The notes: generated by a model from the letters alone, not told the origin. 56,648 nt of DNA from Candidatus Woesearchaeota archaeon (GCA_016180085.1 JACPBX010000005.1:1-56648), one strand, 5' to 3'; shown: positions 7,187 to 48,283, numbered from the stretch's first letter. Translations and numbers: made by a program.

Positions 7187-8224
7187 CTATTTGCCCTTCA
7201 ACCCGTAGAAGTGGGGATCCGAGTAATCAAATAGCCTGTCCTTGCGTGTAATAATGGCAGAATCTTTGCTTCCCGGCTTAAAGTCTGCCGGGCTTGCATG
7301 AAGGTAAATGATTTTCTTTCCGCCATCGTCAGGCCGCAGGAGAACTCTCCCTTTCAAGTGTTCTATTGTCCCTCTTACAGGCTCGCCCTGCGGCGGATTC
7401 GCATCCAGAACTGAAGGTTGCGGGGCCGCGGTTACAGGAGGCTGTTGCTGAACACCCGTCACATCGTCTGCAGGCTGGTCATCAGGAGAGTCGTCATCAA
7501 AAGAGTCATCAATAGATGCCTTACGTTTGCTGCGCGGCCGGCCCGCAACTTTAGCTTTCCAGACCTTGTTCCATTCCTCAATGGTTGGAGGGTTGAATAG
7601 CGATAATCTCCCATCATAAGATTCTCTGGCGTAATCCGGCACGCTGACGGGAATTGAACTCACGCCAAAAGTAGTGGTGGTAATGGACCCGTATCTTCCA
7701 CCCTGCCAGGGCTCTATAGAGGATTCAAACATGCCTACCCGGGTTCCGATAGGATATTTCGGGGCGCCTATGATGGCTATTAGTTGCCTACGGAAATCAA
7801 CAGCCACAGGATGACCATTCTTTTCGCCGATGATGAACGCTTCAAATTTGCCCATGGCTGCATCGCGTCTTTGGCGATTCCTTTCGGATTCAGCTATCCG
7901 ATGGCTCATCTCCTTGTCCCAAGAAGCCTTCCATTCTTCAAAGGATGGTGGCTTGAATTGCTTTAGCATCTCCCTAACCCTGTCGTAAGGTACTTCCGGG
8001 AGTCCATGGGTATGCACATTAAGAATAGTGGCTGTAGTATATCCGCCAGCGCATTGCTCAAGTGCAGATCTAAACGTGGTTACTTCTGTGCCGAAAGAAT
8101 GAGCTGCCGCAGGAGTGCCAACAAGTGCTATCAAAACCGGATTCGGACCAATTGATACTGCCACAGGATGGCCGTTTTTCTCTCCGATAACAACCGTTAC
8201 CAGCTTATCGTCATTGGCAGACAT
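7187..8224 (-). CDS. Hypothetical protein with two ~100-aa internal repeats, an acidic/Pro linker and a small C-terminal beta domain
   Basis: IGEKNGHPVAV at aa 13 and aa 132; both repeats end F[KN]PP[ST][FI]EEW..W. Confidence 0.75.
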   Translation of the reverse strand: MSANDDKLVTVVIGEKNGHPVAVSIGPNPVLIALVGTPAAAHSFGTEVTTFRSALEQCAGGYTTATILNVHTHGLPEVPYDRVREMLKQFKPPSFEEWKASWDKEMSHRIAESERNRQRRDAAMGKFEAFIIGEKNGHPVAVDFRRQLIAIIGAPKYPIGTRVGMFESSIEPWQGGRYGSITTTTFGVSSIPVSVPDYARESYDGRLSLFNPPTIEEWNKVWKAKVAGRPRSKRKASIDDSFDDDSPDDQPADDVTGVQQQPPVTAAPQPSVLDANPPQGEPVRGTIEHLKGRVLLRPDDGGKKIIYLHASPADFKPGSKDSAIITRKDRLFDYSDPHFYGLKGK

Positions 8225-8366
8225 TTTATTTGCAGGAGCGTGGTTTTATATTTAAATATTGTTGAAAAATAGTATATCGCAAAAGACGCATTTATGCGAA
8301 TCCTCTCCCAAACCTATCTTTTCCGCAACAGAAAACTATTTAAAGATGTTTGCGGCAGGGCAAAGG

Positions 8367-8386
8367 CTCCTCGTGAATTCGGGGAG
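8367..8386 (+). promoter_or_regulatory. Hairpin at the 5' end of the long leader of the 8492-9076 gene
   Basis: CTCCTCG-TGAATT-CGGGGAG, about 25 nt after TATA-like ATTTAAAG (~8339-8346). Confidence 0.4.
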
Positions 8387-8491
8387 TCGTTGTTGATTCA
8401 TTGTTGGTTGGGAAATTTAGCGGGAATATACGAGCAACGAGCAGCGAATTTTTTGGCAGCGTGTTGCGTTTGTTGCATTTTAGTTTAGGGG

Positions 8492-9076
8492 GTGGAGAAA
8501 GTGGAGAACAGTCTGTTAGGGAGAGCTAATGCTACGCTAAACAATGGCGGCAGTGCTGATTCTGCTGTTGAAGTGCTTAACCGGAAGTTTGAGGCGGCAC
8601 TGACAGGCGTGAGGGAAGAGTTTGACGACCACCGCGAAAGCATCAATGACAATACTAACGAAATAGAAGCGAATTACGAGCTCCTTTGCAAGCTTGAGGC
8701 AAAGGTTGACAGGCTCCAGGAGCAGATTGAGAAGTTTCACCTTTCACTGTCACGATTTCTGGGAGATTCATCGCAGCAGCAGCCAGATATGGGCTCTATC
8801 GAGCTTGATGAGAGGGAAAAAGAGGTTTTCCTTGTACTTTACACTGCCTCGGACCAGAAGCCGCTTGCTTACAGGGAGATTGCAGCAGCCATAAAGGAAA
8901 GCGAGTTCCTTGTCCGTGGTTATGTAACAAACATGGTTGAGAAAGGCGTGCCAATTGTGAAGCGCTACATCAACGACGTTGCGTATATCGCGCTTGACCG
9001 CTCATTCAAGGACAGGCAGGCAAAGGAAAACATCGTGAAGCTAAGCCAGAGGACTGTTAAGGAGTTTGTGGTTTAA
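8492..9076 (+). CDS. Coiled-coil plus C-terminal winged-helix protein (likely start GTG 8501 after GGGGGTG SD)
   Basis: Heptad-rich N-half (EEFDDHRESINDNTNEIEANYELL), then LDEREKEVFLVL..YREIAAAI...YVTNMVEKGVPIVK wHTH pattern. Confidence 0.7.
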   Translation: MEKVENSLLGRANATLNNGGSADSAVEVLNRKFEAALTGVREEFDDHRESINDNTNEIEANYELLCKLEAKVDRLQEQIEKFHLSLSRFLGDSSQQQPDMGSIELDEREKEVFLVLYTASDQKPLAYREIAAAIKESEFLVRGYVTNMVEKGVPIVKRYINDVAYIALDRSFKDRQAKENIVKLSQRTVKEFVV

Positions 9077-9091
9077 GCTTAAGCCTAAAAG

Positions 9092-9301
9092 TCAGTGGGA
9101 AACAGCAACTGTTACCTTTTTAATTTCCATCTTAGGGATTCTTTCAGACGCGTCTAATATTTCGATAGCCATAATCTTGTTGTCCTTTGTCATGTCAATA
9201 ATTACGCCTTCGTCTATTTCTTTGCTTACCTCATACTTACCTTCCTGGAACTTTATACGCATTACATCATTTTTTGCATCAAATGTTATTTTCATTTCCA
9301 A
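9092..9301 (-). CDS. DUF2283 family protein (putative antitoxin)
   Basis: KITFDAKNDVMRIKF...GVIIDMTKDNKIMAIEILDAS. Confidence 0.85.
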   Translation of the reverse strand: MEMKITFDAKNDVMRIKFQEGKYEVSKEIDEGVIIDMTKDNKIMAIEILDASERIPKMEIKKVTVAVSH

Positions 9302-9540
9302 ATGTACCTCTCAGGTTTTGCATAATAAGCTGTTATTACTATATAAGCATTTGCTTCTGTTTCAAAAACCACTCGTAGAAGCCTAGTTCCAAAAATCTTG
9401 TGCGCGATTTTCCTTCCCTTCTTACCCTCTGAAAGAATAATAGGTTTCAGAAGCGCCAACTCAACATTTTCTTTGCTGATTTCCCTGTCTTTCAGGGTTT
9501 CTTCCGCATAATCTGTATACGTGCTGTTCATAAAGCCCAA
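9292..9540 (-). CDS. DUF4258 family protein (putative toxin)
   Basis: YTDYAEETLKDREIS...LRVVFE...IVITAY; overlaps the DUF2283 gene. Confidence 0.8.
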   Translation of the reverse strand: MGFMNSTYTDYAEETLKDREISKENVELALLKPIILSEGKKGRKIAHKIFGTRLLRVVFETEANAYIVITAYYAKPERYIWK

Positions 9541-9563
9541 CCGTTAAAGCAGGTGCTTTGCTG

Positions 9564-10826
9564 CTAGTTCAGGGCAGAAGCTGTAGGTGGAGCAGCCGCT
9601 TCCTGCTGCCCCGTGCCGTTTGTTGTCTGGTAATTTTTCCCTCTCAGCAGCTCCACAGCCTGCTCGTAAAAGGTTGTCTTCTTGTCCGCCCTTTCAAGCA
9701 GCGACCTTTGCTTGTTTACCTCGTGCTGGACAGAAGGCATTATTGTGTAATCCACTGTCCCTATGACGTTCACGAGCTTTTTTACAGCCTCTGTAGTTGC
9801 TGCGCTTCCGGCCTGCACCACGCCAGTGAGTATCTGGTACGCGTCAGTGACCGCTGTTGCAGTCTCAACAAGCTGCGGCAGCAAATCGTCAGCCTGCCTT
9901 GTTCTCTGGACAAAGGTCAGGAACCTCGTCACGTAAGAATGCACGAGCCGGAGTTCATGCAGCCCCATGCGGACAACATCTTCTTTTGCCCTTACCTGCG
10001 AGCTTTGTTTGTAAGTGTCAACAACCTGCTGGCCCAGGATTTCCAGCACATTTTTCGTTTCCTTCTCAGCCCTTAGCAGGTTGTTAAGCTTTGCCTGCAG
10101 CGGAACGTACTCGGGGCTGTCCATTTGCGTTTGCGCAAGCTGGCTGGACCTGGTTTCGACGGCCTTTTGCGTTTTGGCTTGCCTCGCTTCTTCTTCTGCG
10201 AATTGCGTCTTGGCGCTGTCAAATTCCTTCAGGAGGTCGCTGTCGTAGACCCTGAGCTTTCTGACTATTCCCTCCGAGTGGTTTACCGCCATTCCAACCT
10301 GTTTCTGCATTGCTGCCATGACTGCTATCTCTTCGCTTACGAGCTTTTCGAGCGATGGCACAGGCTGTGGAACCATCCCGTGGAATGCTGTTAGCAGGCC
10401 GCGGGAGGTTGCCTGGTAAAGCGCTGCTTTTGCACTCTCAACTGTTCTCAGGGCGCTGCTTTCGTTCAGCTTTGCATGGTAATTAACCAGGCTTTGCAGC
10501 CTGCCGAGCTCGACCATGTGCTCCATCGCTGCCTGGTAGCAGGCTGGCGCCTTGTTTGCTGACTGGCCTTTTCTGGGGCTTTCTTCGTATAGGTCAGAAA
10601 AATCCGCATCAGGCTCAACGCCTGGCCTTGGCCTTGCTATCACCTTCATTCTGCTGCCAAGCCCTTTCCCGTTGTCGTTATGGCCGTTTTTACCGCCATT
10701 CACGCCAGCTACGCCAGCTCTGCTAGCTCCGCTAACCCCGCTAACCATGTTTCCCACCTCTTTTCCTAACCTGTTCGCTGCATTTAACGCCTGAGCTAGC
10801 TCAACGACCGCCCCTACGTCTGTCAT
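9564..10826 (-). CDS. Hypothetical long coiled-coil protein
   Basis: 420-aa ORF with GGAGGGTG SD, heptad-rich central region; second gene of a two-gene operon. Confidence 0.75.
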   Translation of the reverse strand: MTDVGAVVELAQALNAANRLGKEVGNMVSGVSGASRAGVAGVNGGKNGHNDNGKGLGSRMKVIARPRPGVEPDADFSDLYEESPRKGQSANKAPACYQAAMEHMVELGRLQSLVNYHAKLNESSALRTVESAKAALYQATSRGLLTAFHGMVPQPVPSLEKLVSEEIAVMAAMQKQVGMAVNHSEGIVRKLRVYDSDLLKEFDSAKTQFAEEEARQAKTQKAVETRSSQLAQTQMDSPEYVPLQAKLNNLLRAEKETKNVLEILGQQVVDTYKQSSQVRAKEDVVRMGLHELRLVHSYVTRFLTFVQRTRQADDLLPQLVETATAVTDAYQILTGVVQAGSAATTEAVKKLVNVIGTVDYTIMPSVQHEVNKQRSLLERADKKTTFYEQAVELLRGKNYQTTNGTGQQEAAAPPTASALN

Positions 10827-33193: not shown

Positions 33194-33598
33194 ATGATAA
33201 AGGTCGCAGACGCCAGAATCGGAACTTGTATTATGAACAGGGGTGAGCCTTCCAAGGTTACCCAGAAAGAGAGGGTTACTGTTGGTACTCACATGCATTC
33301 CAAGACGAGGCTGGTTGTGCAGGGCATTTTCTCAGGCAGGAGCGAGGTTTTGACGCTTTCTCACCATGAGAACCTTGAGGACATTGAAATCACCAACAAG
33401 AAAGGCCAGGTTGTTGCTAAAATTCCTCCCAACCAAATACAGATTATGGACCTGGTCAGCTACGAGACGCTGGCCGCAACAGTTGAAAAGGAAATGTTTG
33501 ACAAGGCCAGCGAGGGCAGCATAGTTACGTTCATTGAGCTGCAGGGCAAAGTGATCATAATAGAAATGAGGGAAGCTCGTGAGGAAGAGCAAAAGTAA
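33194..33598 (+). CDS. Translation factor aIF5A/eIF5A homologue lacking the hypusine Lys (start ATG 33194, 134 aa)
   Basis: Aligns by eye over the full length with aIF5A: G..I...GEP.KV, GTHMHSKTRL (for GKHG.AK.R), GIFSG, K.GQV, QIMDL.SYET, G..V.F.E..GK.II. Confidence 0.85.
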   Translation: MIKVADARIGTCIMNRGEPSKVTQKERVTVGTHMHSKTRLVVQGIFSGRSEVLTLSHHENLEDIEITNKKGQVVAKIPPNQIQIMDLVSYETLAATVEKEMFDKASEGSIVTFIELQGKVIIIEMREAREEEQK

Positions 33599-38693: not shown

Positions 38694-41600
38694 ATGGCCT
38701 CTGAAACTACAGCCGCAGCGGCTGCCAATCCTTTTCCCCGTGCTTACGACTTCAAGCGCATTGAGGAGAATGTTTCCATGCTGTGGAAGGAGAAAGGCGT
38801 TATTGAGAAGGCAATTTCTTATGATGAAAAGAAGCCTCTTTTCAGCTTTCTGGAGGGGCCTCCGACAGCCAACGCCCCTCCTGCGCTGCACCATGTTGAG
38901 ATGCGCACGATAAAGGACCTGGTTTGCCGTTATAAGTTCATGAAGGGCTTTTCAGTTCCCAGGAAGGCAGGCTGGGACTGCCATGGGCTTCCTGTTGAGG
39001 TGCAGGTTGAGAAGAAGCTGGGCCTCAGCACAAAGAAGGACGTTCTGAATTACGGGATTGACAAGTTCAATGCGCTGTGCAGGAGCGATGTTTTCTCTTT
39101 CATTAGCGAATGGGACAGGCTCACTGACAAGATGGCTTTCTGGATTGATTTAAGTGACCCATACGTTACCCTCAAGAACGAATACATTGAAAGCGTTTGG
39201 TGGAGCCTTCAGCAGCTGCACAAAAAGGGTATGCTGTACGAGGATTTCAAGGTTTTGCCTTATTGCCCAAGGTGTGAAACTCCATTGAGCAGCCACGAGG
39301 TTGCCTTGGGCTATGAGGATGTGACAGAGCCGGCAATAACAACAATGTTTCAGCTGAAAGGAGGCCCAGAAAGCCCTACTCGTTACCTTCTCGCGTGGAC
39401 AACCACTCCCTGGACTGTTCCGGGCAACATCGCCCTGGCTGTCCACCCTGACATAACTTATGCTGTTGTTGAGGACGGCACAGGCGCCCATCCAGGCAAG
39501 CAGTTCATTCTGGCTAATGACCTTGTGGGCAAATACTTCAAAAATCCAGTAATTGTGCAGCAGATGCAGGGAACAGAGCTGGAAGGAAAGGAGTATGTGC
39601 CCCTGTTTGATTACTTCGTAGATAAGCTTGACAAGCCTGCGTGGGTTATCACACTGGCCGATTTTGTGACGACAGAGGAAGGAACAGGCATTGTGCACCA
39701 GGCCCCTGCCTTTGGAGAGGAGGACTACGAGAACTGCAGGAAGCACGGTTTGGCGTTTGTGCAGCCTGTAGCTGAGAACGGCACGTTCACGAAAGACGTT
39801 GAGGACTTTGCCGGGCTGTTCGTCAAGGATGCTGACCCCTTGGTCATCGAACGGCTGGAAAAGGACGGCACGCTCTTCAGCAAAGGGAACTACACCCACA
39901 CTTACCCGTTCTGCTGGCGATGCTCAACTCCCCTGCTTTATTATGCCCTGAAATCATGGTTTATTGCAGTCAGCAAATACAAGCAGCGGCTGGTTGAGCT
40001 GAATGAAAAAATAGCATGGTATCCTGACCACATAAAGCATGGAAGGTTTGGCGACTGGCTTGCCAATGTCAAGGACTGGGCATTGAGCAGGAACAAGTTC
40101 TGGGGCACTCCCCTGCCAATATGGAAGTGCAATAACAGCGACTGCGGCAATGAAACTGCTATTGGCAGCATCAAGGAATTGAAAGAAAAAGCAGTAGGCC
40201 TGCCTAAAAACGCTGAGGTTGACCTTCACAAGCCCTTCATTGACGAAATCAGGCTCAAGTGCGGCAGCTGTGCTGGTGAAATGTCTCGTGTCCCTTACGT
40301 TATTGACTGCTGGTATGACTCGGGGGCTGCAACGTTTGCTCAGTTCCATTATCCTTTTGGCAAAGGCAGCAGCGAGAGCTTCCAGAAAAGTTTTCCGTAC
40401 GATTTCATCGCCGAAGCTATTGACCAGACTAGGGGCTGGTTTTATACACTCCATGTCCTTGGCACATTGCTGTTTGACGGCCTTGCTTACAGGAGCGTTG
40501 TCTGCGCCGGCCATGTTGTGGATGAGAATGGCGAGAAGATGAGCAAGAGCAAGGGCAACGTCCTCAACCCATGGGAGGTCTTCGGGAAGGTCGGGGTTGA
40601 CGCTGTCAGGCTCCAGTTCTGCAGCACCTCGCCGGAAGCCCCAAAGCGCTTCAGCTACGGGATTATCAATGAGAACATAACGCCTTTCCTCACCGTGCTG
40701 TGGAACAGCTGCTATTTTGCATCCGAAACTTTAGCGAAGAAAGCTGCGGCAGCAGGGGATTCCCCTTTGAAAATTGAGGACAAATGGATAATTTCCCGGG
40801 CAAACTCTGTCGTGGCTGCTGTTGAGGATGCGCTTGGCAGGCACGAATACCACGCCTGCGTGCAGGCGCTGAAGTCCTTTGCCACTGACGACTTCTCCAG
40901 GTGGTATATCAGGCTTATCAGGGACAGGGCATCAGGCCCTGACGCACCTGACGATGCGCTGCAGTACACGTTTCGCTATGTAATCTCCAGGGTTGTAAAG
41001 CTCCTTGCGCCCTTTGCGCCTTATGTAAGCGAGGAAATTTACCAGCTGCTCGTCAGGGAAAAGCCGGTTAGTGTTCACCTTTCCGAGTGGCCGAAGGGAG
41101 AGGCTATAGACGAGGAGCTTGAGTCTCAGATGGCTGTTGCAAGAAGTATCGTTGAGTCTGTGCTCTCTGCCCGTGACCAGATTCAGCGCGGCCTGAAATG
41201 GCCGCTGAAAAGGGTCTCTGTCGTTACTAAGGACGAGAAGGTAAAGCAGGCAATCAGGAGCCTTGCTGAAGTAATAAAGAAGCAGGGCAATGTCAAGGAG
41301 CTTACGCTGTCTGATGAGTTCAAGGAGGCAAGGCAGAGGGTTAAGGCTGACTACAGCAAGCTTGGGCCCGTGTTTGGAAGCATTACCCCGAAAATCATCG
41401 CCAACTTGGCGATGCACAGCACCCAGGCAGTTTTGCAGCACATTGAAACCGAAGGCAGCTTCAGGCTTGAGGTTGACGGCCAGATGATTTCAATAACGAA
41501 AGAGCACCTGATAACGGAAAAGGAAATTCCGGGCAACTACGTCCAGGCGCAGTCACAGTACGCTGACATTTACATTGACACAGAAATGACAGAAGAGATG

Positions 41601-41882
41601 GAGGCAGAGGGCTATGCCCGCGAGCTGGTCAGGCACGTCCAGCAGGCAAGGAAGGATGCTGGCTTGACCAAGGACCAGCTCATCGCAGTTGCCATAAAGT
41701 TCCCTGAGCAACTGCTGCACCTTAAAGATGCGTTAAAGGACCATGTTGCCGACATGAAGTCAAAAGTGGGCGCCTTCAAGCTGCAATTCGCTGATGCAAG
41801 GCCAGAGCAGGGAACGTTTGACAGCGAAGCAGTCGCAAGGATAAAAGGGCAGAATGTTGAGATATTCCTGACAAAGGCCTAG
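38694..41882 (+). CDS. ileS: Isoleucyl-tRNA synthetase (type 2, archaeal/eukaryote-like) with ALHH signature
   Basis: EGPPTAN, GWDCHGLP, AWTTTPWT, DWALSR.KFWGTP, DQTRGWF, KMSKS. Confidence 0.98.
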   Translation: MASETTAAAAANPFPRAYDFKRIEENVSMLWKEKGVIEKAISYDEKKPLFSFLEGPPTANAPPALHHVEMRTIKDLVCRYKFMKGFSVPRKAGWDCHGLPVEVQVEKKLGLSTKKDVLNYGIDKFNALCRSDVFSFISEWDRLTDKMAFWIDLSDPYVTLKNEYIESVWWSLQQLHKKGMLYEDFKVLPYCPRCETPLSSHEVALGYEDVTEPAITTMFQLKGGPESPTRYLLAWTTTPWTVPGNIALAVHPDITYAVVEDGTGAHPGKQFILANDLVGKYFKNPVIVQQMQGTELEGKEYVPLFDYFVDKLDKPAWVITLADFVTTEEGTGIVHQAPAFGEEDYENCRKHGLAFVQPVAENGTFTKDVEDFAGLFVKDADPLVIERLEKDGTLFSKGNYTHTYPFCWRCSTPLLYYALKSWFIAVSKYKQRLVELNEKIAWYPDHIKHGRFGDWLANVKDWALSRNKFWGTPLPIWKCNNSDCGNETAIGSIKELKEKAVGLPKNAEVDLHKPFIDEIRLKCGSCAGEMSRVPYVIDCWYDSGAATFAQFHYPFGKGSSESFQKSFPYDFIAEAIDQTRGWFYTLHVLGTLLFDGLAYRSVVCAGHVVDENGEKMSKSKGNVLNPWEVFGKVGVDAVRLQFCSTSPEAPKRFSYGIINENITPFLTVLWNSCYFASETLAKKAAAAGDSPLKIEDKWIISRANSVVAAVEDALGRHEYHACVQALKSFATDDFSRWYIRLIRDRASGPDAPDDALQYTFRYVISRVVKLLAPFAPYVSEEIYQLLVREKPVSVHLSEWPKGEAIDEELESQMAVARSIVESVLSARDQIQRGLKWPLKRVSVVTKDEKVKQAIRSLAEVIKKQGNVKELTLSDEFKEARQRVKADYSKLGPVFGSITPKIIANLAMHSTQAVLQHIETEGSFRLEVDGQMISITKEHLITEKEIPGNYVQAQSQYADIYIDTEMTEEMEAEGYARELVRHVQQARKDAGLTKDQLIAVAIKFPEQLLHLKDALKDHVADMKSKVGAFKLQFADARPEQGTFDSEAVARIKGQNVEIFLTKA

Positions 41883-42465: not shown

Positions 42466-42834
42466 TCAACGCACGAAAACGGTGTTTGGCAGGCCCTTAA
42501 AGGCGTTGTCGCATGTCAGGAATCGCATGTTGCGTTCCATTGCATAGGTGTAACCGAGCGCGTCTGCATAGGAAAAGCCGCGTTTCTCATTTTCCAGCCT
42601 GAATTTCATTGCCTTCCTGATTATTGTTTTCGTCGGAATTACCATTAAGGGAAAGAGCATCTTCAGCGCCTCTTCTGCTATGTTCTCACCGGCTTTTTTT
42701 AATAACATGAAATAAGACTCCATTATAACAAGCAGACTGACTTTGCCTTCGTGAGGCTCTTCAAAGTAGCTGGCGACATCAGGGTTGTCTATCATGTATT
42801 CGTAAATTGCCGAGGTATCATAGAAATAGCTCAT
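42466..42834 (-). CDS. vapC: PIN-domain (VapC-like) toxin
   Basis: YFYDTSAI, MESY, SYADAL, FLTCDNAF. Confidence 0.9.
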   Translation of the reverse strand: MSYFYDTSAIYEYMIDNPDVASYFEEPHEGKVSLLVIMESYFMLLKKAGENIAEEALKMLFPLMVIPTKTIIRKAMKFRLENEKRGFSYADALGYTYAMERNMRFLTCDNAFKGLPNTVFVR

Positions 42835-43050
42835 TTAATCACCCCAGCCTTTTCTTGCCTCATCCTTGAATTCCTGGGCTGTCATTTTTATCTTGCCTTT
42901 CAAAATGCCCCTTAGCGCTCTAATGCCTGTTTTTTTCGCTGTAACAACAATCTCATCACCTTCTTCAATTCCTTCTCCTTTGACGAACTCGAAGGGTAAA
43001 ACTACCCCGAGAGAGTTTCCCCACTTTCGCGCTTTTCCCACTGCTTCCAT
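42835..43050 (-). CDS. vapB: AbrB/MazE-family (VapB) antitoxin
   Basis: KARKWGNSLGVVLP......GIEEGDEI. Confidence 0.9.
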   Translation of the reverse strand: MEAVGKARKWGNSLGVVLPFEFVKGEGIEEGDEIVVTAKKTGIRALRGILKGKIKMTAQEFKDEARKGWGD

Positions 43051-43113: not shown

Positions 43114-44052
43114 CTACTTCTTCACAATCGCGTAAGTGTGCGTCACATAGACGAAGTGCGGCCTGAACTTCAGCTTGAACTTCAAAAGCGGCATGGGGCT
43201 GCCTCCGAAGTCGACAAGGCCGTAGCCTTTTTCCTTAAGCCTGTGGAGGTCATCGAGGTTGGCAATTTCGCCAAGGCCTTCAAAGGCGTAGTTGCAAATG
43301 CCCATTGCAGAATAGTAAGCATTGTCAGAGTTTGGGATTTCCCAGCCGCAGGTTATGCTGCATGGCTCTCCGTCAACGACCATTGTTGTGGCTAATTTTG
43401 TGCCTTCAAAGCCAATATCAATCATCTTGAGGTATCTTTCATCGTAAGCAAAGTTTGAATCTCTCCTGTTGGCGCCCAGGCTCATAAGCTTCCTGCGCTC
43501 AACCCACTCATTAACTATTTTTTTCAGTTTCTCCCTGCCAACTGTCCTGCTGTCAACCATCTCAACAGAATGCTCGCCATAAAACCTGTTCCTGATGTTC
43601 CTGAGCTTTTTCCAGTCGTCGCCAGCCATATCATCTCCGTGCCACCTTTCCATGTTAAAAACCGGCCAGTAGAGCGAGAACCTGGGCTGCAATGCAGCGT
43701 AGCCGTTGCCCTCAAACGACTTCAAAGTGGCTGCCCTCAGCGCATCGTCCTGCTCAACGACAAATTTCCGGATTTTAAGCTGGCTGAAGCACGTGTCAAG
43801 GGCATCTTTCAAAACACTAACCTGCTTTTCTCTTGGGGCAAGCGCTTCGGAAATCATTACAACTTCTCCTGCCTTTTCCCTGTAATTCGCAAAAATGCCA
43901 AAGCCCTCATCCGACTTCAGGAAAATATTTCTTGCGCCATTATCGGCCGCAGTCGAGAAATATGCGTAGTTGTGCTCTGGCGTGTAGCCGAATTTCCCTA
44001 TGCACCTCTTTATCTCATCGCCTGATTTCTCAGGCATTTCTACCAATTCCAT
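43114..44052 (-). CDS. Divergent DUF2156 / LPG_synthase_C-like (Fem-type GNAT) protein
   Basis: M.GDDWKKLRNIRNRF, EW..R, V.DG...G..., G.G......D...L...GY..VDFGGS...LLKFKLKFRP parallels the DUF2156 C-terminal motifs. Confidence 0.7.
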   Translation of the reverse strand: MELVEMPEKSGDEIKRCIGKFGYTPEHNYAYFSTAADNGARNIFLKSDEGFGIFANYREKAGEVVMISEALAPREKQVSVLKDALDTCFSQLKIRKFVVEQDDALRAATLKSFEGNGYAALQPRFSLYWPVFNMERWHGDDMAGDDWKKLRNIRNRFYGEHSVEMVDSRTVGREKLKKIVNEWVERRKLMSLGANRRDSNFAYDERYLKMIDIGFEGTKLATTMVVDGEPCSITCGWEIPNSDNAYYSAMGICNYAFEGLGEIANLDDLHRLKEKGYGLVDFGGSPMPLLKFKLKFRPHFVYVTHTYAIVKK

Positions 44053-44132
44053 TACAAAAAGTGATATTGTTGCACCGCATATTTAATTTTTTGCCCAAAA
44101 AGAATAAAAACAAGCCCAAAAACCACTTTTTT

Positions 44133-44510
44133 ATGGGAGACCTGCCTGTTCCGGTTAAGATTGGGCTCATATGCGTTGGCACAACTGCAACTTTGCTGGG
44201 TTTTATAGGGTCTGTCGGTGCCAGGCCTGTCGACAGGATAGTTTACCTTAATAAGCCACCGGCAGTTGCAAAGCCCGCCAGCCAATCTTCGGCTCTTTCC
44301 GGAGATGCAACGCAGTCAGTGGATGATTATGTGCCCGGCAATACTATCGCTTATTCCCAGAGCAATCCCAAAAGAAGCTTTGACCTTGCGCCGCAGAAAT
44401 ACCTGCTTCTTATAGCAACCGGTTTCGCAGTTGGAGCGGTCGGGGTTCACACTTATTGTGTGGGTGTTTATGAGGGAAGTCACGGGCTTTGGCGTAGAGA
44501 AAAAAGCTGA
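44133..44510 (+). CDS. Hypothetical two-TM protein (ORFan; start ATG 44133)
   Basis: Hydrophobic ends with a P/S/A linker. Confidence 0.5.
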   Translation: MGDLPVPVKIGLICVGTTATLLGFIGSVGARPVDRIVYLNKPPAVAKPASQSSALSGDATQSVDDYVPGNTIAYSQSNPKRSFDLAPQKYLLLIATGFAVGAVGVHTYCVGVYEGSHGLWRREKS

Positions 44511-44554
44511 ATTTTCTGCAAAAAAATATAAATGCCCCTGTTTTTGGTTTCCTC

Positions 44555-45508
44555 ATGGATTCATTGCAGAAGGATGGCGAGTTGAGAGAAGTCTTGCTTT
44601 CTGACTGCGCTTTTTTTGAAAAAGCTTTTTCTTCTGTTCCTGAGCCGCTTGCCGACACTACCTTTACCATGCGCTTTATTTGGGCAGGGCCCCTGAAGCA
44701 TGCCTGGACTGTCATTAACGGGAATTTGTGCGTGTTTGGCTACGATAAGGGCCGCTATGTTGTGTGGGGACCTCCTGTCGGCGGCGCAAAGCTTTCTGAC
44801 ACGATTGCCGGGTGCTTTGAAATTGTAGAAAAGTTGAATGCTGCCGGGGGGGTAAATGCCAATCCTGCTGCGATTTACGTTCCAGAATGCCTCAGGTCAG
44901 AATACGAGGCTGTTGCCGAAAAGCTTGGCTGCTCGCTGGACTACTGGACCCAGGATTACATTTACAAAACCAAAGACCTGATTGAGCTGAAGGGCCCGAA
45001 GTTTGACTCAAAGCGCAACAAGGCCAATTTTTTTATGAAAAATTATGACTACGGCGTTGAAGAGTTTAATTTTGACAAGCACGGCAGCGAGTGCCTGGCC
45101 CTCGTGGATTTATGGAGAGAGCAGAAAGAAGGCATGGAAGGCAGCAGTGCTGACCTGTGGAGGTATGAAATTGGTGCAGAGACCGAAGTTGCAAGGACGC
45201 TGATAGGGTTTTCAAGGGAACTTGGCGTAAGGGGCATAGTGCTAAAGGTTGAAGGCAGGATAGTCGGGGTCAGCCTGGGCGAGCACTTAACGCCAAATAT
45301 GTGCAGCAATATCATTGAAAAGACAAACCCTGCCATTAATGGCGCGTCCCAATTCATTTTCAGGGAGTTTTCAGGTTACTGGTCGCGATTGTCCGGCTGC
45401 GAGTTCCTGAATGCCCAGGACGACTTTGGCGTGGATTACCTGAAAAGAGTGAAGCTGTCTTACCATCCTGCAAAGCTTCTGAAGAGCTACTGTTTGGAAA
45501 AGAAGTAG
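44555..45508 (+). CDS. DUF2156 / phosphatidylglycerol lysyltransferase C-terminal-like protein (soluble, no flippase domain)
   Basis: DYIY...DLIELKG.KFDSKRN..N.F, ECL.LV.LW, G.VL.VEG.IVG..LGE, IIEKTN..I.GASQFI, D.G...LKRVKLSYHP. Confidence 0.85.
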   Translation: MDSLQKDGELREVLLSDCAFFEKAFSSVPEPLADTTFTMRFIWAGPLKHAWTVINGNLCVFGYDKGRYVVWGPPVGGAKLSDTIAGCFEIVEKLNAAGGVNANPAAIYVPECLRSEYEAVAEKLGCSLDYWTQDYIYKTKDLIELKGPKFDSKRNKANFFMKNYDYGVEEFNFDKHGSECLALVDLWREQKEGMEGSSADLWRYEIGAETEVARTLIGFSRELGVRGIVLKVEGRIVGVSLGEHLTPNMCSNIIEKTNPAINGASQFIFREFSGYWSRLSGCEFLNAQDDFGVDYLKRVKLSYHPAKLLKSYCLEKK

Positions 45509-46383
45509 CTGATGAGCTTGTATACGAGCTTTGCTGCGAGAACATCCGGCGCGCGGTTGCCTGGTATGGGCATCAGTTCAGTCACGTCAAAGCCCACAAC
45601 ATTCTTCCCAGCAGCGATTTTCTTCATGAATTCAAGCATCTGGTACCATTGCAGGCCGCCTGGCTGCGGTGTTCCCACAGATGGCATGATGGAAATGTCA
45701 AAAGCGTCAAGGTCAATTGTGATGTAAACGTTCTTCCCAAGCGATTTGACAGCTGCGTCCATCCAGGCGCTGTTGCTGCCGTCATGAATGTCTTTTGCGA
45801 AAAAGGTTTTTATTCTGCCGTTGCTGCTGCGGATGTGCTCCATCTCCTCTTCTGCAATGCTCCTCACTCCAACAGAGACAAGGGGGCACATCTCTGATAT
45901 CCTTCTTGCGACGCAGCCGTGGTTAAACCTGTTCCCGGCAAGCTCATCCCTCATGTCAGCGTGCGCATCAACATGAAGCACCGTAAGGTCGGGATATCTT
46001 TCCATGTGCGCCTTCACTGAACCGCTGCTGATGGAGTGCTCGCCGCCAATGACTGCGACTTTCTTATTGTCACCCAGCAAAACCTTGACAGCCTCATAAA
46101 CCCTGTTGGCCATTTTTCCCGCATCGTCAACCACTTCCACCTCATCCAAGGTGCACACGCCAATCCCGGTAAAGCTCCTTTCGGTCTCCTCATCGTAGAA
46201 TTCCAGGCAGCGGGATGCCTCGATCAGGGCTCTTGGGCCGTTTCTTGTTCCCGGTTGGTAAGTCGTGGTTGCGTCGTAAGGCACAGGCAGGATTACGACC
46301 TTCGATGCGCCATACTCTGCAAGCTCGTGCGGTATTGCCCCAAAATTGAACGGAAGGTAAAAATGCGGATTTTTTGCTGGCAT
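45487..46383 (-). CDS. speB: Agmatinase (ureohydrolase family)
   Basis: PYD.TTTY.PGTR.GP, GGEHSIS, DAHAD, DLDAFD, GFDVTELMP. Confidence 0.93.
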   Translation of the reverse strand: MPAKNPHFYLPFNFGAIPHELAEYGASKVVILPVPYDATTTYQPGTRNGPRALIEASRCLEFYDEETERSFTGIGVCTLDEVEVVDDAGKMANRVYEAVKVLLGDNKKVAVIGGEHSISSGSVKAHMERYPDLTVLHVDAHADMRDELAGNRFNHGCVARRISEMCPLVSVGVRSIAEEEMEHIRSSNGRIKTFFAKDIHDGSNSAWMDAAVKSLGKNVYITIDLDAFDISIMPSVGTPQPGGLQWYQMLEFMKKIAAGKNVVGFDVTELMPIPGNRAPDVLAAKLVYKLISYFFSKQ

Positions 46384-46440
46384 TGCAACTTAACCGCTGT
46401 CAAGTGCTATATTAAAAATTTTTCCAAAAATTCCAAGAAA

Positions 46441-46875
46441 TTACTGTACGAGTTCCCTCTCCTTCCGCGCTATAGATGCTGCCTTCTGTACATTTCGCGG
46501 GTAGTGCTTGACAAACGCCTTTCCCCGCTCAATCATGTTTTTCTCTATCCGCTTGGCCTCAAGCCTTTCCATAAGGTATTTTGTGGCGGTTTCCTCGCTG
46601 AAGTACTTGCAGGAGAATATGTCAAATGAAGCAAAGCCGTCTTGCGGAAAGGTATGGATTGCAATGTGGCTCTCCACCAGAATTACGAAGCCGGTCAGGC
46701 CGCCCTTGTCAAAGGAGTTTGGCTGAATGGGGATTTTCGTCAGCTGGGGCGTTGAGAACTTGTGCATGCCGAGCATCTCAGGCATCTCATCCAGGACGCT
46801 GTAAACGAAGTCGTAATCATCCAGCTTCTTTTTATCGCATCCGTACAGGTCAAGAGTCAGGTGTGGTCCGAACAT
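46441..46875 (-). CDS. speD: Pyruvoyl-dependent AdoMetDC-fold decarboxylase proenzyme (SpeD/SpeH family; substrate uncertain)
   Basis: G.HL.LDLYGC, ILVESHIAIHTFP (E/S autocleavage), DIFSC; GAGGTG SD. Confidence 0.9.
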   Translation of the reverse strand: MFGPHLTLDLYGCDKKKLDDYDFVYSVLDEMPEMLGMHKFSTPQLTKIPIQPNSFDKGGLTGFVILVESHIAIHTFPQDGFASFDIFSCKYFSEETATKYLMERLEAKRIEKNMIERGKAFVKHYPRNVQKAASIARKERELVQ

Positions 46876-46879
46876 TTTA

Positions 46880-46996
46880 CTAAATGCTCACCTCGTTTTT
46901 TTCAATTTCAAGAAAGCTTAAGCTATTTTTCTGGACAGGAATACCGCAATTGCCACATAAATGCATATTGCTTACTGACGTGATATACGAGTTCAT
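46880..46996 (-). other. Candidate 38-codon upstream ORF in the speD leader
   Basis: MNSYITSVSNMHLCGNCGIPVQKNSLSFLEIEKNEVSI, located between TATA (TTTAAATA, ~47037-47044, minus strand) and speD; stop 4 nt before the speD ATG. Confidence 0.35.
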
Positions 46997-47147
46997 CTGC
47001 ACCAATTTTTTATGTGAACCAGTTATGTAAACGCTTATATTTAAACTTAACTGTTTTTTGTTTTTCCGGGAATTTTTTGGTAAAAAGTTTTGATAAATTT
47101 CTTTCAAAAGCCGCCTTTATCTGATTTTTATCTAATTTTTCGCAACA

Positions 47148-48113
47148 TCATTCAAAAAAATAATCATTGGACGCTATCAGGAGAGGGAAAATCACAGCTG
47201 CATCGCCGTAAATTGTGACGTCCCTGGCATTTTCGCTGATTTTCCCCCAGGATTTTGCCTCGCTTGTCGTAGCCCCTGACAATGAGCCGTGGTATGGCGA
47301 GCTGCTGTTGACGTAAATGGCGTAGTCAAGGCCTCCGCCAAGAATGTTTGAAATTATTGTGTGGTGCTTTGCTATGCCTCCGCCAAGTATTATCGCGCCG
47401 ACTTTCCCGCTTCCACTCTTTTTCGCGGAAATTGCGAAGTCAATTGCCTCAATTGCGCCTTTAAGCTCGTTCACCCTGAAATCCGGGTGCGTCTGCTGGA
47501 AAAACGCGAGTTGCAGCCCAACCGCGCCATCGGTTATTCCCGGGCAGAATATTGGAATGCTGTTCCGAGCAGCGTGGTAAACGAATGAGTCTTCAGTGTC
47601 AAGGTTCATGCCAATCTGCCTTATCAGTTCTGTTACCGTAAATTCGTGGCTGGTGCTGGTGTTATGGATTTTTTTCAGGACCTCAGCCATTTTTTCTTCC
47701 AGATACTCGTAGCATTCATTTGGCACGAATATGCTTCCCATCCTGTTGATGCCTTTCCTGCCAAGCTCGGCATCGTCCGCCTCAAACGTGCCCTGAAAAT
47801 AAGGCATTTTTGCCCTGGCGATGTCCTCGTCAAGCGCGCCGCTGCTTACCACAAGGGCATGCACCTTTTTTCTTTTGACCAGGTCTGTTATTATGCCGCG
47901 AATGCCTGATGCGGAAATGTTCGATGTGAAGCTCAGAAATATCGTTGCCTTGTCATTAACCATCTTGGCCAGAATTTCGGCAGCGGTTGCAATATTGTGC
48001 GTCTGGAATCCCGAGTTTTTGAGCTGCCGCACTAATTCAGCAACTGGCATGCCTTTCCTGAGCCGGATATCGGCAATTGGAGGAAGATTAAGGTTGCCGT
48101 CGTTGCTTTCCAT
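47148..48113 (-). CDS. dhs: Deoxyhypusine synthase family protein (likely start ATG 48113)
   Basis: SFTSNI..SG.R, G..DED, IFCPGITDG, LGGGIAKHH, SLSGA..SEA.SWGK (catalytic Lys present). Confidence 0.93.
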   Translation of the reverse strand: MESNDGNLNLPPIADIRLRKGMPVAELVRQLKNSGFQTHNIATAAEILAKMVNDKATIFLSFTSNISASGIRGIITDLVKRKKVHALVVSSGALDEDIARAKMPYFQGTFEADDAELGRKGINRMGSIFVPNECYEYLEEKMAEVLKKIHNTSTSHEFTVTELIRQIGMNLDTEDSFVYHAARNSIPIFCPGITDGAVGLQLAFFQQTHPDFRVNELKGAIEAIDFAISAKKSGSGKVGAIILGGGIAKHHTIISNILGGGLDYAIYVNSSSPYHGSLSGATTSEAKSWGKISENARDVTIYGDAAVIFPLLIASNDYFFE

Positions 48114-48283
48114 GTTGCCAGTCAGCAAAGCCCGATGTTATATAAAATTTACCAAAAAAAACATTAAATCAAAAAATACCTGGGCAAATCCGAAAGGACA
48201 CTGATAGAAAACTATTTATACTTAATTCTTAAAAGTTTTAGTTAGGTTGAGAGTGTTGTTGGGTGTGCAGGGCTGATTTGTAA

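Follow-up and report, generated by a model that had tools for sequence, protein, structure and literature searches.

Two stand-alone DUF2156 proteins encoded with arginine decarboxylase and agmatinase in Woesearchaeota: candidates for the tRNA-dependent aminoacylation of agmatine-derived polyamines

What might two soluble proteins of the DUF2156 family, which is otherwise known for modifying lipids and sterols, be doing among the polyamine genes of an archaeon? The question is raised by a 56,648-nucleotide stretch of DNA from Candidatus Woesearchaeota archaeon (GCA_016180085.1, JACPBX010000005.1:1-56648; hereafter, the window), in which a first-pass annotation had noted consecutive dhs, speD-like, and speB genes next to two DUF2156-like genes. 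The observation is real, and all five ORFs were recovered in place. The minus strand carries a deoxyhypusine synthase family gene (DS/DHS; 47148..48128; PF01916, 311.2 bits), which probably begins at the ATG at 48113, the first within the ORF and the dhs end previously annotated; speDA (46441..46875; 144 aa; AdoMet_dc PF02675, 97.1 bits); speB (45487..46383; 298 aa; agmatinase TIGR01230, 236.6 bits against a cut-off of 174.3); and the gene that we term DUFb (43114..44052; 312 aa), with a weak, partial match to PF09924 (28.4 bits, just above the cut-off of 27.5). The fifth gene, DUFa (44555..45508; 317 aa; PF09924 over its full length, 102.3 bits), is on the plus strand, convergent with speB, whose 3' end it overlaps by 22 nt, and divergent from DUFb. 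The mixed orientation noted earlier is thus correct and, given the inversion of DUFa, the five genes cannot form a single transcript in the window.

SpeDA belongs to the class 1b AdoMetDC fold, and its residues for processing (Ser69) and catalysis (His74 and Cys89) are spaced as in the Thermotoga maritima enzyme (S63/H68/C83; PMC10407285). It is the sole AdoMet_dc/SpeD homolog in the genome, whose assembly comprises 1.0 Mb and is 82.8% complete, a figure that qualifies all genome-wide absences given here. Within this assembly we found no SpeE, CASDH, PvlArgDC, or other arginine or ornithine decarboxylase (ADC/ODC), and the lack of a spermidine synthase, previously noted for the window, extends to its remainder, with no PF01564 match in either; the genome as assembled has no spermidine route. 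SpeDA is therefore in the 'anomalous' context of having no SpeE, no other ADC/ODC, and an adjacent SpeB in an 82.8% complete genome. Arginine decarboxylases with the AdoMetDC fold are expected to have lost a Pro that is invariant in true AdoMetDCs (PMC10407285); the central motif of SpeDA, HTFPQ, contains a Pro, which may or may not be the diagnostic one. PIN80235 is a characterized protein of this type, and ADC activity has been demonstrated for a Woesearchaeota SpeD homolog from the same type of cluster (Li et al. 2023, PMC10407285). The lone SpeD, the missing SpeE, CASDH, and PvlArgDC, the adjoining SpeB, and this proven homolog together favor the earlier suggestion of an arginine decarboxylase, and SpeDA is best read as a probable pyruvoyl-type ADC with the AdoMetDC fold. 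SpeB (PF00491, 228.5 bits) retains the metal-site motifs GGEHS, DAHAD, IDLD, and DVTE and is an arginase-fold ureohydrolase of the agmatinase type, with agmatine or a substituted agmatine as the predicted substrate.

The DS protein was earlier taken for a possible DHS paralog acting as a homospermidine synthase. By its profile scores it is divergent, yet DHS models remain its best matches: among NCBIfam models it scores highest with deoxyhypusine synthase NF002294 (323.4 bits, under the cut-off of 350), and TIGR00321 stays below its own (281.8 against 304.25). It bears the catalytic-Lys motif SWGK at residue 293. We rejected membership in the SpeY/bis-guanidino-homospermidine synthase clade on the basis of its low scores with the SpeY-type models (NF002699, 130.9 against 500; NF001980, 138.5 against 450) and its mere 25% identity to the DS2 paralog of L025, which adjoins PvlArgDC and SpeB. 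By contrast, it is 37–45% identical to the sole DS of genomes from other families (G016, G075, G080, G032, and G070), the assembled genome encodes no second DS, and DS is found in 120 of the 121 genomes of the order; it is, then, an ordinary single-copy archaeal DHS ortholog. Two of those families (G032 and G070) encode AdoMet_dc+DS fusion proteins, indicating that agmatine probably feeds DHS directly. The route from arginine through agmatine and putrescine to homospermidine, as first proposed, is at odds with the published DS-homolog route, which bypasses putrescine by passing from agmatine to bis-guanidino-homospermidine and on to homospermidine (PMC13625781).

We propose that the region comprises two functionally coupled layers, of which the first is of a known kind. 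SpeDA would convert arginine to agmatine, and the single-copy DHS and the SpeB ureohydrolase would act on agmatine-derived intermediates, yielding either deoxyhypusine on aIF5A or homospermidine via the bis-guanidino intermediate; the ADC-DHS link in this layer is backed by the fusions. Clusters of dhs, speD-like, and speB genes have already been described in Woesearchaeota (Li et al. 2023, PMC10407285), which leaves the DUF2156 pair beside the ADC and agmatinase as the new part of the locus.

DUFa and DUFb are both confidently predicted to fold as MprF-type tandem GNATs (AF2 pLDDT of 94.6 and 93.8, respectively). The PF09924 match covers profile positions 12–297 in DUFa and only 111–251 in DUFb, many relatives of DUFb lack a precomputed PF09924 match, and hhalign aligns DUFb to DUFa only in the C-terminal GNAT, at a probability of 93%. 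The DUFb family is small (205 clusters among 1.84 billion representatives), with members in DPANN and CPR. In Foldseek searches with the predicted models, DUFa best matches 2hqy (TM 0.81/0.86), followed by MprF synthase domains, and the best matches of DUFb are P. aeruginosa MprF/A-PGS, 2hqy, and L-PGS; the E-values of the pair against 2hqy, 5vrv, 4v36, 4v34/35, and 9goe range from 1e-25 to 1e-11. The aa-tRNA-dependent amide synthases Sbb17/Sba18, which use small-molecule amine acceptors, are also among the fold matches. Between the two GNAT halves of each protein sits a basic helix, at residues 148–163 in DUFa (R154 invariant, K153 in at least 90% of sequences) and 145–160 in DUFb (K148, R151, N152, and N155 invariant, K149 in at least 90%). 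Such a helix is the feature binding the acceptor stem of aa-tRNA in Fem, L/F-transferases, and aaPGS (reviewed in PMC6103681, PMC7334510).

These features bear on the chemistry of the pair. Lower-ranked fold matches, namely MshD, a clavulanate tandem GNAT, and glucosamine N-acetyltransferase, use CoA thioesters, acetyltransferases are common in polyamine operons, and DUFb is sometimes fused to, or adjoins, a classical Acetyltransf_1 GNAT, all of which would suit acyl-CoA-dependent N-acyl (acetyl) transferases acting on polyamines in homeostasis or export. We consider this unlikely, as the aa-tRNA branch is favored by the top fold matches, by the assignment to the Pfam family, and by conservation of the basic helix, bacterial DUFa-like homologs adjoin a tRNA-binding-domain gene in a triad tRNA_bind-CxxCxxCC-DUF2156, and the separate small GNAT would be redundant were DUFb itself an acetylating enzyme. 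Within the aa-tRNA branch, every characterized DUF2156 enzyme is a lipid or sterol O-aminoacyl transferase (MprF, Ala-DAG synthases, and ErdS; PMC6103681, PMC7334510, PMC8913301). With MprF synthase domains as best structural matches, it is conceivable, though on balance rather unlikely, that DUFa and DUFb aminoacylate the hydroxyl of a membrane lipid, such as an archaeal phosphatidylglycerol-type head group, with a shared role in envelope or cation balance as the sole reason for adjoining polyamine genes. However, both proteins lack membrane and flippase domains as well as any hydrophobic segment (no 20-residue window holds more than 12 hydrophobic residues), and each consists of the soluble domain only. 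MprF proper, the bifunctional aaPG synthase/flippase, was ruled out, the N-terminal integral-membrane flippase domain being absent.

The gene neighborhoods speak further against a lipid acceptor, as the interleaving of DUFb with ADC and SpeB (e.g., speDA-DUFb-speB-DUFb) and with CASDH/CASDC exceeds usual co-regulation and persists over many rearrangements and a cross-domain transfer. DUFa orthologs adjoin DUFb in every sufficiently long locus and, down to 36–42% identity in the window's clade, always retain the block DUFb-DUFa-speB-speDA, which is joined by DS in only some loci. This constancy might reflect no more than an ancestral insertion that placed the pair between IleRS and speB, followed by general synteny: the entire 15-kb neighborhood (IleRS, L21e, Rpb4, Rpe, and UPPS) is conserved in this clade, whose loci are consequently not independent evidence, DUFa is inverted in the window, and a MazE-PIN pair and small ORFans have been inserted nearby. 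Yet in G059 and L007 all block genes are co-directional, with gaps of 11–184 nt or overlaps, as in an operon, and independent architectures exist with interleaved orders and two non-homologous ADCs, namely SpeDA and PvlArgDC, which has an unrelated fold (Pfam-confirmed in L025). At least six gene orders combine DUFb with an ADC: speDA-DUFb-speB-DUFb(-AcT6), speDA-AcT6-DUFb-CASDH-CASDC-speB, speDA-Ddl-speB-DUFb-AcT6, speDA-Ddl-CxxC-DUFb, Ddl-CxxC-DUFb-PvlADC-DS2-speB, and, transferred into CPR bacteria, PvlADC-MetK-speB-Ddl-DUFb flanked by MurB and SecA. In the DUFb tree the ADC-linked members are spread over at least six separated clades. We therefore regard a functionally meaningless adjacency as improbable, and infer that DUFa, DUFb, ADC, and SpeB constitute a conserved, horizontally mobile module.

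DUFb is co-directional with an ADC in 37 of 56 species-level loci, a sample dominated by a few related clades. As a rule the locus also encodes SpeB and one further enzyme that forms amides, which may be another DUF2156, a FemAB-like protein, or a Ddl-like ATP-grasp. With one genome sampled per family, an ADC adjoins DUFb in only 4 of 11 genomes (G000, G059, G075, and G110), the others having only Ddl-like, FemAB-like, or GNAT neighbors, which makes the polyamine link frequent and not obligatory. Thus, of the conservation expected for DUF2156 with the polyamine genes, the association with ADC and SpeB is borne out across many rearrangements, but dhs is not a regular partner, being missing from most related DUFb loci in the 56-locus sample.

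The last point weighs on a protein acceptor, in which either aIF5A, at its deoxyhypusine or guanidinobutyl-lysine side chain, or its Thr-tipped paralog would be extended by a tRNA-derived amino acid. The Lys-less aIF5A-like factor invoked earlier does exist in the window (33194-33598), with GTHM in place of the expected GKHG; a canonical aIF5A, found in five of seven genomes of the same genus, is probably merely unassembled here. In favor of such an acceptor, the pair is in line with dhs in the window's clade, a functional tie joins the ADC to DHS, the superfamily includes the protein modifiers L/F-transferase and ATE1, and ATE_C is matched weakly by some relatives of DUFb. Nevertheless, nearly every genome of the order has DS and aIF5A while DUFb occurs in 11 of 121 genomes, and the Thr-tipped paralog occurs in 17, only 4 of which also have DUFb; its co-occurrence with the DUF2156 family is thus not tight, and a protein acceptor seems very improbable.

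The repeated pairing of DUF2156 with ADC and agmatinase, in varied gene arrangements of related archaea and some CPR bacteria, suggests that polyamines derived from agmatine undergo a modification not yet described. Our preferred reading, tentative and given somewhat less than an even chance, is that DUFa and DUFb perform tRNA-dependent aminoacylation of agmatine or putrescine. In this second layer, for which we infer the tRNA dependence, acceptor, and order of steps, the pair would draw an amino acid from aminoacyl-tRNA and acylate agmatine with it at the free primary amine; once SpeB had removed the guanidino group, a second amino acid could follow, either on the amine thus exposed or on the amino acid already attached, giving aminoacyl- or dipeptidyl-putrescine-type conjugates. 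The frequent PF13480 FemAB-like and the Ddl-like ATP-grasp partners of DUFb are likewise amide-bond formers, and peptidoglycan is an unlikely target, since the Mur-ligase set is absent from these archaea. Against aminoacylation of a polyamine stands that the characterized DUF2156 enzymes make esters on hydroxyls, not amides on amines. Our literature search found no paper on tRNA-dependent aminoacylation of agmatine or putrescine by such genes.

Among known systems, the speY-speDA-speB clusters known from Woesearchaeota and other phyla (PMC10407285; Li et al. 2026, PMC13625781) match the dhs, speDA, and speB genes here in both family and order. There, SpeY joins two agmatines and the ureohydrolase afterwards frees homospermidine, whereas the DS of the window is the universal archaeal DHS ortholog and not the SpeY-type paralog; searching these two papers revealed no reference to adjoining DUF2156 genes. 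Haloferax volcanii, for which an agmatine-dependent deoxyhypusine pathway was proposed from a DHS-agmatinase-like cluster (Prunetti et al. 2016, PMC5178350), similarly lacks spermidine, clusters DHS with an arginase-fold gene, and requires ADC; the ADC of the window differs in having the AdoMetDC fold and in being fused to DHS in sister families, and the haloarchaeal system involves no DUF2156 genes. With the C-terminal domain of MprF/aaPG synthases (PF09924; 4v34, 4v36, 9goe, 7duw), DUFa and DUFb share the tandem GNAT, the inter-GNAT basic helix, and a C-terminal FK.KF.P-type motif. They differ in being soluble proteins of 312–317 aa with only 12–18% identity and no membrane or flippase domain, and their encoding in archaeal ADC/agmatinase operons suggests that the acceptor is not phosphatidylglycerol. 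The structure nearest to DUFa, 2HQY, the BT stand-alone DUF2156 protein with 25% identity, is likewise soluble and single-domain; it is bacterial and of no assigned function, and the bacterial DUFa relatives adjoin tRNA_bind and CxxCxxCC genes rather than polyamine genes. Finally, FemX and Sbb17/Sba18 (9wqw-9wqy) form a separate family of the same superfamily with a weaker match (TM about 0.5-0.6), and they act on cell-wall precursors or on an intermediate of an aminosugar antibiotic; they nonetheless use aa-tRNA to acylate an amine on small or soluble acceptors, the very chemistry proposed here for DUFa and DUFb.

The positions of the five open reading frames placed by the first-pass annotation are all confirmed. 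The cluster is formed by a deoxyhypusine synthase (DS)-family gene (47148-48128, minus strand, with its first ATG at 48113; PF01916, 311.2 bits), a SpeD-like gene (46441-46875, minus strand; PF02675, 97.1 bits), the agmatinase-type ureohydrolase gene speB (45487-46383, minus strand; 236.6 bits with the agmatinase equivalog TIGR01230 against a cut-off of 174.3), and two DUF2156 genes, namely DUFa (44555-45508, plus strand; 317 aa, PF09924 at 102.3 bits over its full length) and DUFb (43114-44052, minus strand; 312 aa, PF09924 at 28.4 bits over profile positions 111-251 only). Both DUF2156 genes are annotated solely as domain-of-unknown-function or hypothetical proteins. Close homologues are labeled Candidatus Woesearchaeota or Nanoarchaeota. 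The IleRS gene (38694-41882) and a 145-aa ORF lie to the left of DUFb, with a MazE-like antitoxin and PIN-domain toxin pair (42466-43050, minus strand) inserted in between; a similar pair occupies the same site in one related locus (L004) and other sites in two more (L005, L009). DUFb and DUFa are separated by 500 nt, and this gap contains a ~125-aa ORF with two hydrophobic segments (44134-44510, plus strand), which is missing from the relatives L004 and L005, where the gap is ~100 nt. A TATA-like box, AAAAAAATATAAAT, is found ~22 nt upstream of the DUFa ATG.

The assembly carrying the window (1.0 Mb in 45 contigs, 82.8% complete) encodes a single AdoMet_dc homologue, and at that completeness contains no detectable spermidine synthase, carboxyspermidine dehydrogenase (CASDH) or pyruvoyl arginine decarboxylase (PvlArgDC); the lack of a spermidine synthase, earlier noted for the window, thus extends to the assembly. 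This is the same 'anomalous SpeD' situation by which AdoMetDC-fold arginine decarboxylases (ADCs) were discovered (Li et al., 2023; PMC10407285). The same study described Ca. Woesearchaeota clusters of speDA, the gene for such an ADC, with speY and speB, and measured ADC activity for the clustered enzyme, with ornithine and lysine being inactive (PMC10407285). The SpeD-like protein of the window retains the processing Ser (S69) and the catalytic His and Cys (H74, C89) with the spacing seen in T. maritima. When the order was sampled at one genome per family, 38 of the 121 genomes had an AdoMet_dc homologue. The first-pass reading, which joined a polyamine/DHS cluster and two DUF2156 paralogues into a possible undescribed pathway, stands in part: its polyamine half is ordinary, as the dhs/speDA/speB cluster type is already described, while its DUF2156 half entails a chemistry that we infer.

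The proposal that the DS is a paralogue does not survive comparison with the rest of the order. DS is present in 120 of the 121 genomes (a tally that takes in one unpublished genome, G112, used for no other result), mostly as a single copy, and the window protein shares 37-45% identity with the DS that is the sole or main one in other families, as against only 25% with the second copy found beside PvlArgDC and an arginase in G075. Its best NCBIfam models are those of deoxyhypusine synthase, just below their cut-offs, with the SpeY-type models scoring far lower. This combination of phyletic pattern, identities and model scores leads us to reject a SpeY-type paralogue and to regard it as the orthologue of the order's usual DS (DHS). 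An AdoMet_dc gene adjoins DS in five of the genomes (G000, G059, G065, G047, G012) and a second DS copy in another (G039). In two further genomes the domains are fused, as confirmed by Pfam, in proteins of 442-449 aa with an N-terminal ADC-type AdoMet_dc domain and a C-terminal DS domain that is the only DS of the genome: G032 (contig C1; L097:3302-4630, minus strand) and G070 (contig C31; L098:1502-2851, plus strand). The same fusion is probably present in G100 (contig C72), because both matches fall in one open reading frame. A conserved ORF of 173-176 aa without a Pfam match follows the fusion in G032 and G070, with an arginase-fold gene coming after it in G032. The ADC and DHS are functionally tied in this order, and the fusion, as a Rosetta-stone link, suggests that agmatine is channeled into DHS as its substrate. 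Such a role would be in keeping with the agmatine-dependent route to deoxyhypusine that has been put forward for Haloferax (PMC5178350) and with the reaction proven for SpeY, wherein two agmatines yield bis-guanidino-homospermidine, from which a ureohydrolase then frees homospermidine (PMC13625781). The occurrence, in sister lineages, of proteins that unite an AdoMetDC-fold ADC with the only DHS opens a long-standing question to direct test, that of deoxyhypusine synthesis in spermidine-less archaea.

A Thr-tipped aIF5A paralogue is encoded in the window (33194-33598, plus strand), and it had been suggested that this Lys-less factor accepts an amino acid from the DUF2156 proteins. No canonical aIF5A was found in the assembly; however, since five of the seven genomes of the same genus carry the canonical form together with the paralogue, the canonical gene is probably simply unassembled here, and its loss is an unsupported reading. 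In G059, the paralogue (C12:43335-43718) lies ~13 kb from a dhs-speDA-speB-DUFa-DUFb operon. Across the order, the paralogue is found in 17 of the 121 genomes (matches of 34-43% identity) and DUFb in 11, with only four genomes common to both, which weakens protein modification with aIF5A as the acceptor and speaks against the Thr-tipped form in that role. Several of the paralogue matches are interrupted by a single in-frame stop when read through in tblastn.

Confident AlphaFold models were obtained for DUFa and DUFb from 35 and 38 homologues (pLDDT 94.6 and 93.8, respectively). The nearest fold to DUFa is that of 2HQY, a stand-alone protein from Bacteroides (TM 0.81/0.86, 25% identity), with MprF synthase domains next; those nearest to DUFb are P. 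aeruginosa MprF/A-PGS, 2HQY, and B. licheniformis L-PGS. A PDB sequence search with the DUFb profile gave no match, and only the fold search succeeded. One rival reading, given this kinship with MprF, is lipid O-aminoacylation; both proteins are devoid of a membrane domain, and further down both fold lists come FemX and two amide synthases that depend on aa-tRNA, Sbb17/Sba18. The two window proteins are distant from each other (hhalign probability 93%, 16% identity, C-terminal GNAT only), and the DUFb family is small: searched against 1.84 billion representatives, its profile matched 205 clusters at E <= 1e-3, and 101 when the threshold was tightened to E <= 1e-30. Each has a strongly conserved basic helix between its GNAT halves (DUFa residues 148-163, where R154 is invariant and K153 almost invariant; DUFb 145-160, with K148, R151, N152, and N155 invariant); according to reviews, such a helix is the feature by which Fem, L/F-transferases, and aaPGS all bind aa-tRNA (PMC6103681, PMC7334510). 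Omnitrophota homologues of DUFa occur in a conserved triad of tRNA_bind (PF01588), CxxCxxCC (PF03692), and stand-alone DUF2156 genes (L092:5188-6894 and the ENA contig of P0061), and the tRNA_bind gene supports a tRNA dependence of these proteins. CxxCxxCC also sits beside DUFb in archaea, and in P0105 it forms one protein with a DUFa homologue; it may partner soluble DUF2156 enzymes in general. In other cases, small Acetyltransf_1 GNATs adjoin or are fused to DUF2156 homologues; the alternative of a CoA-dependent N-acylation of polyamines has to be weighed against the basic helix and the tRNA_bind association. A 746-aa protein of G061 (contig C8; L088:128-2368, plus strand) has an N-terminal DUFb-type domain and ~440 C-terminal residues without a significant Pfam match.

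Within the clade of the window, the arrangement DUFb-DUFa-speB-speDA beside IleRS is kept by all DUFa orthologues on long-enough contigs, down to 36-42% identity. The linkage of DUF2156 to speDA and speB thus holds in the relatives but that to dhs only in some: DS is part of the cluster in L004, L005, L010, and L023 and absent from it in L007, L008, and L009. The cluster genes are all co-directional in L023 (G059) and L007, with gaps of 11-184 nt or overlaps, and DUFa alone is inverted in the window's subclade. Overlap or translational coupling of the genes in L007, L042, and L046 suggests that DUFa and DUFb may work as a complex. Because the entire neighborhood is syntenic in this clade, these loci constitute weak independent evidence; mere synteny, without functional meaning, is one of the rival readings. 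The DUFb alignment, searched against one genome per species, recovered 56 loci, whose neighbors were typed by tblastn with reference proteins, Pfam checks and follow-up tblastn; an ADC is present in 37 of them, in many gene orders, and ADC-linked DUFbs fall in at least six separated clades of a quick ML tree of 72 sequences. A common order is speDA-DUFb-speB-DUFb, at times followed by a FemAB-like gene (AcT6, PF13480; L049, L051, L053, L055, L057, L058, L067, L081). Others combine speDA, FemAB-like, and DUFb genes with CASDH-like, carboxyspermidine decarboxylase (CASDC)-like, and speB genes in that order (L077 and L079, with the CASDH- and CASDC-like genes of L079 at 7556-9906), reordered without speB (L050), without CASDH/CASDC (speDA-FemAB-like-DUFb-speB, L073), or with only speDA-FemAB-like-DUFb visible (L066, L069). 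The clusters with CASDH and CASDC amount to a full agmatine-to-spermidine-type operon enclosing two transferase-fold genes, and a bacterial-type MetK adjoins several of them. A Ddl-like ATP-grasp gene is found in speDA-Ddl-like-speB-DUFb-FemAB-like (L068), speDA-Ddl-like(-CxxCxxCC)-DUFb (L054, L070), Ddl-like-CxxCxxCC-DUFb-PvlArgDC-DS2-arginase (L025 and L048, one locus), and, between MurB and SecA on Magasanikbacteria-type CPR contigs, PvlArgDC-MetK-speB-Ddl-like-DUFb (L061, L063, L074). That DUFb and the Ddl-like gene serve to build cross-bridges in peptidoglycan or pseudomurein is unlikely in these archaea, Mur ligases being absent from the genome with the window and represented by none or one weak match in G075, G080, G015, G039, and G059. 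The CPR DUFbs are 36-38% identical to that of the window, and the module proteins share 51-68% identity with their Woesearchaeales counterparts in L025, which argues for a recent transfer between archaea and bacteria. Two non-homologous ADC folds are thus recruited, as the PvlArgDC and speDA loci show. The transferase genes are interleaved with ADC and SpeB genes, in a module that has crossed the archaea-bacteria boundary.

Polyamine genes are nevertheless frequent rather than obligatory partners of DUFb. In the one-per-family sample, an ADC adjoins DUFb in four of the 11 genomes (G000, G059, G075, G110), and the others have Ddl-like (G015, G080), FemAB-like (G039, G072), or GlmS and small GNAT (G050) neighbors, making a second amide-forming enzyme the most constant partner. 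By tblastn, polyamine neighbors were absent for the ~30%-identity DUFb members in Aenigmatarchaeota, and no polyamine genes were found within ~8 kb of a third PF09924 subfamily of the order (25-29% identity to DUFa; G048, G105, G041, G096, and others), so that the polyamine link does not extend to every DUF2156 protein.

In these neighborhoods, enzymes of the aa-tRNA-transferase fold are met in a metabolic setting that is both new and conserved, and the DUF2156 half is, with good support, a candidate for a pathway not yet described. Transferases that depend on aa-tRNA are known to act on lipids, on cell-wall precursors, on the N-termini of proteins, and on a few antibiotics; to our knowledge, none acts on polyamines. 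Our literature search likewise retrieved no account of agmatine or polyamines being aminoacylated from tRNA, nor of DUF2156 genes within polyamine operons. The genomes of DPANN and CPR organisms are tiny and encode few biosynthetic pathways. We tentatively put forward, as a possibility well short of an even chance, that this mobile module of DPANN archaea and some CPR bacteria, with its ADC, its ureohydrolase, and its two or three amide-forming enzymes (DUF2156, FemAB-like, or ATP-grasp), builds aminoacyl- or peptidyl-polyamines from aa-tRNA. If so, charged tRNA spent on agmatine-derived amines by a conserved module that is exchanged horizontally would be a real part of DPANN/CPR physiology, with possible roles in polycation chemistry, envelope function, or host interaction; these would be the first amide-forming DUF2156 enzymes and the first tRNA-dependent polyamine modification, yielding a new class of polyamine conjugates, and the widespread soluble DUF2156 proteins of 'unknown function' would gain a testable substrate class. 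We infer the donor, acceptor, and order of steps alike: the ADC would produce agmatine, a tandem-GNAT transferase would move an amino acid from aa-tRNA to its sole free primary amine, the arginase-fold SpeB would take urea off the guanidino end, and a second transferase or ATP-grasp ligase would add another residue to the freed amine or the first amino acid. DUFa and DUFb would perform the two transfers in the window, with the guanidino group serving as a built-in protecting group between the two aminoacylations, a logic mirrored by the common order speDA-DUFb-speB-DUFb. The proposed route would in this resemble the SpeY pathway, where the ureohydrolase also works on a substituted agmatine and not on agmatine itself (PMC13625781).
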